DNA from: Gammaproteobacteria bacterium
GTDB lineage: Bacteria; Pseudomonadota; Gammaproteobacteria; Eutrophobiales; Eutrophobiaceae
NCBI GenBank assembly: GCA_965221695.1
Contig: OZ244905.1
Span: forward strand, 224,001 to 288,000
Direction: 5' to 3'
DNA: 64,000 bases
The position numbers and the translations under genes were made by a program. Under the pieces are notes generated by a model, which searched no databases, had not been told where the DNA came from, and was given only the letters and a program-made list of their open reading frames with translations. Positions 61,565 through 61,667 of this stretch are shown here, in pieces (position 1 is the stretch's first letter; every line of letters starts with the position of its first letter).

Positions 61565-61667
61565 TGGTGTGCCCAGGACGGGGATCGAACCCGTAAGGCA
61601 TGTAGGTATTTCTACAGAGGCCGGGGGAGTGGCAATCCCCTGTGTTTACCGTTTTCACCACCTGGGC
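61565..61667 (-). tRNA. Atypical class II tRNA-like gene: Leu-type body, GCC (Gly) anticodon
   Basis: GCCCAGG/CCTGGGC acceptor, GTG/CAC D-stem, GGGGA-TTGCCAC-TCCCC, 29-nt variable region, ACGGG-TTCGATC-CCCGT; 3' end reads A-CA-CCA. Confidence 0.8.

Follow-up and report, generated by a model that had tools for sequence, protein, structure and literature searches.

A mobile tRNA gene family with a leucine body and glycine or aspartate anticodons, paired with a predicted antisense gene, in one genus of uncultured Gammaproteobacteria

A 64,000-nucleotide (nt) stretch of a gammaproteobacterial genome (GenBank assembly GCA_965221695.1, contig OZ244905.1, positions 224,001 to 288,000; hereafter the window) carries on its minus strand, at 61570-61667, a transfer RNA (tRNA) gene whose body is that of a leucine tRNA and whose anticodon, GCC, is that of glycine. 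Whole-genome comparisons refer to the source genome, G000 (3.54 Mb in one contig). It seems secure that the element belongs to a mobile, multi-copy family of class-II tRNA genes that are intact in structure and confined to one genus, and equally that the conserved unit is a tRNA with a leucine body and either a Gly or an Asp anticodon, paired with a predicted antisense gene. As to function, the reading we favour, with caution, is that of a regulated tRNA which would be charged by the single leucyl-tRNA synthetase (LeuRS) of the cell, read GGY or GAY codons as leucine and be silenced by its own antisense RNA. To our knowledge, few natural tRNAs have a body and an anticodon that disagree. In bacteria the known cases are the tRNA-ProX and allo-tRNA families, and these two provide the chief evidence for the idea that mistranslation may be deliberate; the present family would add a leucine-bodied case.

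Positions 1-73 of the window gene, placed by the Rfam match and by pairs kept across 37 full copies of the family, form a cloverleaf of a 7-bp acceptor stem, a 3-bp D stem, a 5-bp anticodon stem, a long variable arm and a 5-bp T stem. The minus-strand sequence and stem pairing that an earlier note on this DNA had read at 61565-61667 are as described there, with standard pairs throughout the acceptor, D, anticodon, variable-arm and T stems. The Rfam tRNA model (RF00005; gathering cut-off 29 bits) matches 61570-61667 on the minus strand over its full extent (positions 1-71) at 52.6 bits (E 1.8e-9); two paralogues elsewhere in G000 reach 53.3 and 52.1 bits, and the scores of all three copies (52-53 bits) fall within the range of true tRNA-Leu genes. 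The core nucleotides are all present (U8, A14, G18G19, U33, a purine at 37, U54-U55-C56 and A58). On the same strand, sequence reading and the Rfam alignment place the anticodon loop, UUGCCAC, at 61629-61635, with GCC at 61633-61631, and the family alignment delimits a 27-nt variable arm at 61597-61623, in which stems of 3 and 5 bp are separated by an internal loop and capped by a 6-nt loop (61611-61606). Perhaps because of this arm, ARAGORN called only a tRNA-Leu(CAG) at the locus and missed the element. A whole-genome Rfam tRNA search of G000 gave 47 matches: the 44 tRNAs called by ARAGORN, which include a normal tRNA-Gly(GCC) and a normal tRNA-Asp(GUC), the window element and its two paralogues.

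The 3' end is less regular. The discriminator of the window copy, A73 at 61570, is followed by CACCA (61565-61569, minus strand), such that the gene reads A73-CA-CCA: the CCA lies two bases past its canonical place and positions 74-76 are not CCA. Across the 37 copies the offset is zero in 15, one base in nine and two bases in 11, with CCA absent in two. Among the ordinary G000 tRNAs examined, CCA directly follows the discriminator, one ARAGORN call, tRNA-Ser(CGA), being seemingly shifted by one base. As G000 has two genes of the PolyA_pol family, addition of CCA is possible.

The same element, which the earlier note had proposed looking for in related genomes, was found by BLAST over 40 relatives in 12 of the 22 that belong to the same genus and in none of the 18 from other genera. 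The 37 full copies come from these 12 genomes of one uncultured gammaproteobacterial genus and from one further contig, L088; besides them there are one copy without its first 17 nt and one degenerate remnant. G000 has three copies: that of the window and two in tandem, spaced by 190 nt, in the interval from nadA to yebC. One of the tandem copies has the loop CUGUCAC and with it the Asp anticodon GUC; the genome G003 has ten copies within 10 kb. An exact-pattern scan of GTDB, taking one genome per species, found the family only in genomes matching the BLAST-positive relatives and in L088, all other matches being ordinary tRNA-Leu genes (UAA, and three CAA) with the same D arm and anticodon stem, and a metagenome scan added seven contigs with nine copies. 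L088 itself is a 3-kb contig labelled Acidimicrobiia with three modules, whose anticodons are AUC, GCU and GUC; it is the sole source of anticodons other than GCC and GUC, and mis-binning of sequence from the gammaproteobacterial genus probably explains its label. An assembly error in the anticodon can be rejected, since the GYC loop recurs across the 37 copies, in 12 independent assemblies and a stray contig, and again in metagenome contigs. Nothing supportive of a phage or plasmid origin emerged: a pattern scan of viral contigs gave no matches, the phage collection had no match to the element, and the sole match in the plasmid collection was a 52-nt tRNA-like stretch in two Proteus records.

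Selection on the fold is evident from an alignment of the 37 modules that comprises the cloverleaf and a leader hairpin, 1303 pair cells in all. Some 99.0% of these cells are paired and four pairs change on both sides, in 29 cells: one pair lies in the leader hairpin and three in the tRNA, at acceptor pairs 5:68 (A-U 24, G-C 12) and 6:67 (G-C 28, A-U 9) and at pair 31:39 (A-U 32, G-C 5). None of 500 shuffles reached the observed paired percentage, the number of double-change cells or the covariation score, and pairing falls to 31-53% when the partners are slid. The covariation in relatives for which the earlier note had asked is therefore present, and its view that the gene is no decaying pseudogene stands, given 99% pairing and the two-sided changes. 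Loop variation is similarly disciplined: in the D loop only 16, 17 and 20 vary, and in the T loop only 59 and 60 apart from a single purine-to-purine change, G57A, with UUC (54-56) in all copies. Positions 16, 17, 20, 59 and 60 are those that normally vary in tRNAs.

Nor does the anticodon loop drift at random, an outcome that had been named in advance as damaging; it is confined to a decoding-type pattern, Y32 U33 G34 Y35 C36 R37 H38. The 37 copies bear the anticodons GCC (18), GUC (17), AUC (1) and GCU (1). Position by position, 32 is divided between U (19) and C (18), and 35 between C (19) and U (18); U33 is found in 34 copies and C33 in three, and G34 and C36 in 36 each; 37 holds only purines (A in 35, G in two), and 38 is C, A or U and never G. 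Among the commonest GUC loops is CUGUCAC, identical to the loop of the tRNA-Asp of G000, including C38; the loop of the native tRNA-Gly(GCC) is UUGCCAA. On a tree of the copies made from modules with the anticodon-loop columns removed, the GCC/GUC label requires at least 10 changes, near the roughly 12 of shuffled labels, with only three forced by well-supported branches. Two old clades, one for each anticodon, can thus be rejected; rather, the GCC and GUC states interchange repeatedly, or spread through gene conversion, both being retained in most genomes that have more than one copy.

The leucine body claimed in the earlier note is borne out by sequence comparison and by identity elements alike. 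With the anticodon loop and the variable arm set aside, 65 body positions remain. At 56-63 of these, four representative copies are identical to canonical tRNA-Leu(UAA) genes of other gammaproteobacterial metagenome-assembled genomes (MAGs); to the tRNA-Leu(UAA) of G000, the nearest tRNA within that genome, they are identical at 52-56. On account of this difference the family ancestor was probably a tRNA-Leu(UAA) acquired from another lineage, and an origin from the gene of G000 itself (52-56 against 56-63 of 65) is less likely. Two changes would then lead from the ancestral tRNA-Leu(UAA) to the present family: a 7-nt anticodon loop re-specified to Gly (GCC) or Asp (GUC), and a variable arm enlarged to about 27 nt. 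In Escherichia coli, as PMC9976931 sets out in its treatment of leucine tRNAs, the leucine identity elements are A73, A15-U48, G18G19, A20a and tertiary contacts between the D and T arms, the anticodon and the variable arm being dispensable. In the family, A73 is present in 36 of 37 copies, and G18G19, A at 20a and a U placed at 48 in all 37; what the window copy lacks among the marks of a tRNA-Leu is the leucine anticodon (NAG or NAA), having GCC instead. Several tRNA-Leu(UAA) genes met along the way are worth recording. The canonical loci L039, L076, L104 and similar ones, from other gammaproteobacterial MAGs, lie nearer to the family than does the gene of G000. On L075, a contig of a Usitatibacter MAG, the 5' half of a tRNA-Leu(UAA) runs into unrelated sequence just after the first bases of the anticodon, which could be an anticodon-loop intron or a disrupted gene, and L094, a contig of a Longimicrobiales MAG, has a tRNA-Leu(UAA) with an internal partial duplication.

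By sequence rules the family would thus be one of dual-identity tRNAs, with the body of one amino acid and the anticodon of another, and the question becomes which synthetase charges it. G000 has one LeuRS and one aspartyl-tRNA synthetase (AspRS) above the family cut-off. A search for a dedicated synthetase paralogue or an extra leucyl/phenylalanyl-tRNA-protein transferase found neither, there being one LeuRS, one AspRS and one such transferase, in a search that did not extend to the glycyl-tRNA synthetase (GlyRS), Fem-type transferases or cyclodipeptide synthases. Charging with leucine is most likely because the leucine identity elements are kept and LeuRS ignores the anticodon; with no dedicated synthetase, the housekeeping LeuRS is the predicted charger. 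AspRS and GlyRS, on the other hand, rely heavily on the anticodon, and it is for this reason that the copies might be supplementary cognate tRNAs, the GUC and GCC forms being charged with Asp and Gly and boosting translation of the Gly- and Asp-rich RTX proteins beside whose genes many copies lie. The window copy has G1-C72, C2-G71, C35 and C36, together with A73 in place of U73, C3-G70 as its third pair and the 27-nt arm; bacterial tRNA-Gly has G3-C70 at that third pair and a short variable loop. The GUC copies have G10 and, in the form CUGUCAC, the native tRNA-Asp loop with its C38; their discriminator is A73, with one C73 and never G73. The account of identity elements in PMC9976931 ranks the anticodon as the strongest bacterial Asp element and includes C35, C36, G1-C72 and C2-G71 among those of Gly. 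The codon demand of RTX genes for both anticodons is high. Against cognate charging, A73 is found in both anticodon classes, with no co-variation with the anticodon, where Asp would call for G73 and bacterial Gly for U73; the leucine body is near-perfect; duplication of the native genes would be a simpler route; and RTX repeats are as many in genomes without the element. We regard it as improbable.

The tRNA is embedded in a repeated module of about 255 bp (61519-61774), its extent taken from alignment with a paralogous locus (G000:C1:2201126-2201574; query 317/320-575). At its upstream edge on the tRNA strand lies a palindrome, TGTGAGTTTTAGCACA (61759-61774, minus strand), which resembles the CRP/FNR consensus with one mismatch from TGTGA-N6-TCACA, a motif we take to be the CRP consensus. 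A script found TGTGA-N6-TCACA on the tRNA strand of 30 of the 37 copies, usually as TGTGAGTTTTCTCACA, at 72-94 nt upstream of G1 in 29 of these and at 147 nt in one. A weak sense promoter, TTGTCG-17-CAGAAT (61712-61740, minus strand), identified by eye and below the scan threshold, begins 18 nt downstream of the palindrome; promoter assignments here and below are consensus matches. Relative to the sense promoter, the centre of the palindrome would fall near -60 or near -41, depending on the lineage, and the geometry of palindrome and promoter is repeated at six other sites in G000. CRP/FNR-family proteins are present in G000 and none reaches the CRP model cut-off, which leaves CRP itself unproven as the regulator. 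Three copies of a repeated, largely ORF-free sequence (ORF, open reading frame) of at least 260 nt (G000:C1:424821, 427661 and 828838; L141 and L142) are each preceded by the palindrome TGTGAGTTTTCTCACA and a promoter TTGTCA/TTGGCA-16-TAAGAT; they have no Rfam match at E up to 0.01, and may be further non-coding RNAs of the same regulon as the tRNA modules.

Downstream of the sense promoter the leader begins with a run of five to eight A, broken in one copy; next come a hairpin rich in GC and a linker rich in pyrimidines, with U(-1) before G1 invariant in all 37 copies and positions -2 and -3 variable. Read on the plus strand, that hairpin is an intrinsic terminator with an 11-pair stem and a run of seven U (61673-61705), and on the tRNA strand it ends 5 nt before G1. 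Facing it, and firing into the tRNA gene from its 3' side, is a sigma-70 promoter found by promoter scan, TTGACA-17-GATAAT (61521-61549, plus strand; 11 of 12 consensus matches). The scan gave this reading, with 11 of 12 matches, at each locus to which it was applied. Its counterparts begin TTGACA-17 in 35 of 37 copies by script, with -10 boxes GATAAT (26), GATACT (6), CATAAT (2) and AATAAT (1); the other two read TTGACA-17-GACAAT by eye. As the opposite strand has both this promoter and a strong terminator, a full-length overlapping antisense RNA is predicted, of about 150 nt (61557-61705, plus strand, the start placed from the -10 box), which would run from the trailer through the entire tRNA and the linker to the terminator; the predicted fold of this RNA has a minimum free energy of -65.6 kcal/mol (z -3.75). 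With converging promoter, terminator and fully overlapping RNA, the locus has the predicted layout of a cis-antisense locus. In tandem arrays the 190-nt period is exactly the promoter-to-terminator unit of the opposite strand, and downstream units are without the palindrome. Inspection by eye revealed no conserved small ORF on either strand of the module, where the indel of 0-2 nt after position 73 shifts the frames, and the opposite strand of 58000-64000 matches no Rfam family at E up to 1.

Substitutions within the stems indicate which strand selection acts on. Mismatches in the leader hairpin, found in seven copies at five pair positions, are all C.A or A.C on the tRNA strand and hence G.U on the opposite strand, with none reversed. 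In 36 of 37 copies it is the opposite strand that gives this hairpin its stabler fold. In the tRNA body, G.U pairs on the tRNA strand occur in 9, 4, 3, 1 and 1 copies, and the six A.C mismatches are all singletons. For the trailer hairpin the stabler fold is that of the tRNA strand in 27 of 37 copies, and for the body minimum-energy folds favour neither strand. From the wobble bias of hairpin and body, the tRNA-like loop variation and the invariant U(-1) we infer that the body is selected as a tRNA and the hairpin as the terminator of an antisense RNA, both strands probably being used.

These data bear on the proposal that the module works through its opposite-strand small RNA (about 150 nt) as the functional product, for which the tRNA shape would be an inherited scaffold mirrored in the antisense fold and the sense promoter would only modulate. 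Such an RNA would explain why the TTGACA-17-NAYAAT promoter and the terminator with its five to eight U (one run interrupted) are the most constant features of the module, present in all copies, while the 17-nt promoter spacer is unconserved and varies freely; the tandem period runs exactly from promoter to terminator, G.U pairs in the terminator stem are confined to that strand (seven copies, five pair positions), and the strand folds directly into a mirrored cloverleaf. Its AU-rich stretch, hairpin and U tail may be likened to those of Hfq-type small RNAs. An antisense RNA would, however, have no reason to restrict D- and T-loop variation to positions 16, 17, 20, 59 and 60, nor does the proposal sit well with the invariant U(-1), the persistence of body wobble pairs on the tRNA strand with A.C mismatches only as singletons, the greater stability of the trailer hairpin on that strand (27 of 37), and the lack of an Rfam family on the opposite one. 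We consider it unlikely, though not negligible.

The regulated Leu-charged tRNA that we favour would work in six steps: 1) an activator-type promoter beside the CRP/FNR-like palindrome would make a precursor; 2) RNase P would cleave it after the invariant U(-1); 3) the single LeuRS would most likely charge the tRNA with leucine; 4) GCC copies would read GGY, and GUC copies GAY, as Leu; 5) the near-consensus, constitutive opposite-strand promoter would yield a fully complementary antisense RNA, terminated exactly at the 5' edge of the tRNA, which would keep the tRNA silent unless the sense promoter is induced; and 6) RTX mRNAs, with about 31% GGY or GAY codons, would be the most exposed targets. 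Several observations weigh against this scheme. In 20 of 37 copies the CCA lies 1 or 2 nt off its place, and two copies have none; C33 replaces U33 in three copies from three genomes; and the 27-nt variable arm would have to be accepted by LeuRS, EF-Tu and the ribosome. The sense promoter is weak, assigned by eye, missing from the downstream units of tandem arrays and separated from the tRNA by a stable hairpin, whereas the antisense promoter and terminator are found in 37 of 37 copies. As many as ten copies in one genome (G003) would be hard to tolerate for a misreader of Gly or Asp as Leu, and RTX repeats occur in 23 of 23 genomes of the genus, equally abundant without the element and with no relation to its copy number; the idea that copy number tracks RTX load can accordingly be set aside for these 23 genomes. 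The scheme nevertheless has testable features in its two defined anticodons interchanging on one body and in the strong selection on the tRNA fold. The built-in antisense gene and activator site suggest that the cell treats the tRNA as something to be kept off, and RTX genes, about one third of whose codons these anticodons could read, offer a concrete place for an effect.

The association with RTX genes is a matter of codons and of position. GGY and GAY, the codons read by GCC and GUC anticodons, make up 15.6% and 15.8% of codons in the RTX-like ORFs of G000, against 11.9% combined in other long ORFs. Most copies outside G000 and its close relative G008 adjoin RTX genes: at 10 loci in eight genomes (two each in G003 and G004, and one each in G005, G006, G011, G014, G015 and G020), and on three metagenome contigs, the stop of an RTX-like ORF converging on the tRNA strand lies 170-600 nt from the trailer side of a copy. 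Since the RTX proteins at these loci have a C-terminal module in common (33-68% pairwise identity), the loci may be related by descent and their number is not a count of independent associations. None of the 11 RTX-like ORFs of G000 lies beside a copy, and the copies of G008 are likewise not beside RTX genes. That an RTX mRNA ends at the module hairpin is doubtful. In G003 a terminator-like hairpin distinct from that of the module comes after the RTX stop, and G004 has a weak counterpart; in G020 the scan flagged none.

Another possible reading is that of a non-decoding tRNA mimic. Here the sense RNA would be folded and processed like a tRNA and act off the ribosome as a regulatory or decoy RNA: its anticodon loop and hypervariable variable-arm loop might pair with targets such as RTX repeat sequences; it might titrate an enzyme or nuclease that recognises Asp or Gly anticodon arms; or it might be a structured part of a longer regulatory transcript, as is the tRNA-Other of Bacillus cereus, the precedent for such an RNA (described in PMC3399842). 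Among nine near-identical paralogues of G003, differences per site reach 0.45 in the variable-arm loop, 0.56 at the bulged base of that arm and 0.20 in the anticodon loop, against 0.02-0.15 in the leader, hairpin and trailer and 0.004 in the stems, a far faster divergence of these loops that resembles the diversification of recognition loops. The convergence of copies on RTX genes would suit a mimic, as would a CCA displaced or absent in 22 of 37 copies and C33 in three. Furthermore, of five 7-mers tested as complements of the loops, four are about 3 to 6 times commoner in RTX-like than in other long ORFs, although such enrichment is expected from the Gly and Asp composition of RTX proteins alone. 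Against a mimic, the anticodon loop keeps decoding-type rules (Y32, U33, R37) and is limited to two sense anticodons, not varying freely like the variable-arm loop; the copies of G000 and G008 are not beside RTX genes, and the analysis found no target or protein partner. We judge the mimic possible, though doubtful. Even if the tRNA does not decode, a conserved pair of tRNA and antisense RNA that moves as one module would be an unusual regulatory design.

At the window locus, purA, tRNA-Leu(CAG) and the RNase R gene (rnr) are accompanied by the module only in G000 and G008. Five aligned relatives (G002, G018, G020, G005 and G010) are without it, the flanks being about 10 nt apart in G002, G018 and G020, from which it follows that the module is an insertion between purA and rnr. 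The statement in the earlier note that the element lies in the core genome therefore applies to the flanks and not to the element. A by-eye alignment of filled and empty sites at one delimited insertion showed that the module was inserted cleanly, with no clear terminal inverted repeats or target-site duplication. Might the module then be a selfish repeat without cellular function, a tRNA-derived unit akin to a miniature inverted-repeat transposable element, spreading and merely tolerated? Its patchy presence (12 of 22 genus genomes), its insertion at the purA-rnr locus and the ten copies packed with other short repeats into an 11-kb, ORF-poor stretch of G003 would fit. Strong purifying selection on the stems and tRNA core amid randomised flanks, the compensatory changes, the maintenance of both promoters and the absence of any clear terminal repeats or duplication at the one site inspected would not, and we hold this explanation to be very improbable. 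The G003 stretch (L031:2750-13700, that is G003:C1, about 1144750-1155700) lies just behind an RTX gene; its 11 kb contain almost no long ORFs, and hold at least 20 families of short direct repeats, the ten tRNA-like modules and a 96-nt repeat in 14 copies.

By analogy, tRNA-ProX and the allo-tRNAs are the nearest natural precedents for a mismatch of body and anticodon. The tRNA-ProX of Streptomyces and Kitasatospora (tRNA-ProA, -ProN and -ProT) likewise join the identity elements of one amino acid to other anticodons and have an unusual anticodon loop, with A33 where the present family has an occasional C33; as PMC11415595 describes them they come with a dedicated ProRSx paralogue, whereas G000 has a single LeuRS and a single AspRS. 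The present family differs also in its leucine body, long class-II arm, Gly and Asp anticodons, predicted antisense gene and CRP-like site. Allo-tRNAs (Mukai et al., NAR 2017; PMC5389517) are class-II tRNAs whose synthetase ignores the anticodon and which bear many non-cognate anticodons, GUC being among the predominant ones; that account has them often near toxin-antitoxin systems or transposable elements, with several thought to be unused in translation. They have 8/4 or 9/3 acceptor/T branches and serine identity, in contrast to the canonical 7/5 and leucine identity elements seen here. The B. cereus tRNA-Other is tRNA-derived, unused in translation and contained within larger transcripts, with a regulator binding site in its leader; according to PMC3399842 it is single-copy and flanks a genomic island, whereas the present family is multi-copy with a perfect, covarying cloverleaf and a predicted antisense gene. 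Marsupial mitochondrial tRNA-Asp/Gly, as treated in PMC9976931, has GCC and GUC on one body, differing by C35 or U35 as here, except that the switch is RNA editing of one gene with an Asp/Gly-type body and here it is between separate gene copies with a leucine body. In the full-text literature, with subscription journals and supplements outside its coverage, no paper was found that describes such a family with a leucine body, an antisense gene dedicated to a tRNA, or a connection of either to RTX genes; further irregular tRNAs may be listed in the supplement of PMC5389517.

A bolder form of the favoured reading would make the module toxin-antitoxin-like: a mobile unit in which an inducible, Leu-charged misreader of GGY and GAY is restrained by a constitutive antisense RNA of perfect complementarity. 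Type I toxin-antitoxin loci such as Ldr/Rdl and Ibs/Sib are short, often tandem, patchily distributed intergenic modules with a strong constitutive antisense promoter over a potentially harmful gene. Those loci encode a small peptide as the harmful product; in the present module, where no conserved ORF is seen by eye, a tRNA would take that part, and we know of no tRNA described as the harmful product of a type I-like antisense locus. If such a module existed, its release might poison translation, as an addiction or stress module, or deliberately diversify the Gly- and Asp-rich secreted RTX proteins. The proposal remains speculative and distinctly unlikely.

Around the window element, purA lies at 59958-61274 on the plus strand and the RNase R gene begins at 61908 on the plus strand, with hisZ further upstream. 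An ordinary tRNA-Leu(CAG) at 61329-61415 on the minus strand, called by ARAGORN and by Rfam (61332-61415, 55.4 bits), sits 150 nt downstream of the element and outside the module, in agreement with the earlier note, which had placed the element beside a normal tRNA-Leu(CAG). Between the module and the start of the RNase R gene, at 61783-61880, is a short repeat of about 55-100 nt with a hairpin-like core, which occurs dozens of times in G000 and G008 and is also found in other genomes of the genus; because it is absent from G008 at this locus, it is a second, more recent insertion. Elsewhere, modules neighbour a Fic-domain gene, an integrase and an ABC transporter, and the Fic-domain gene (L033:3501-5030, minus strand) and a phage-type integrase (L032:15210-16193, plus strand) end 120-180 nt from the trailer side of a module, converging on it as the RTX genes do. 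The large RTX-repeat protein family with the conserved C-terminal module (approximately ...IDLSAF...GGGRITI...GIFIL-stop) is represented on L005, L010, L011, L031, L032, L036 and L037, and has a member within the window at 15155-18454 on the minus strand, 43 kb from the tRNA element.

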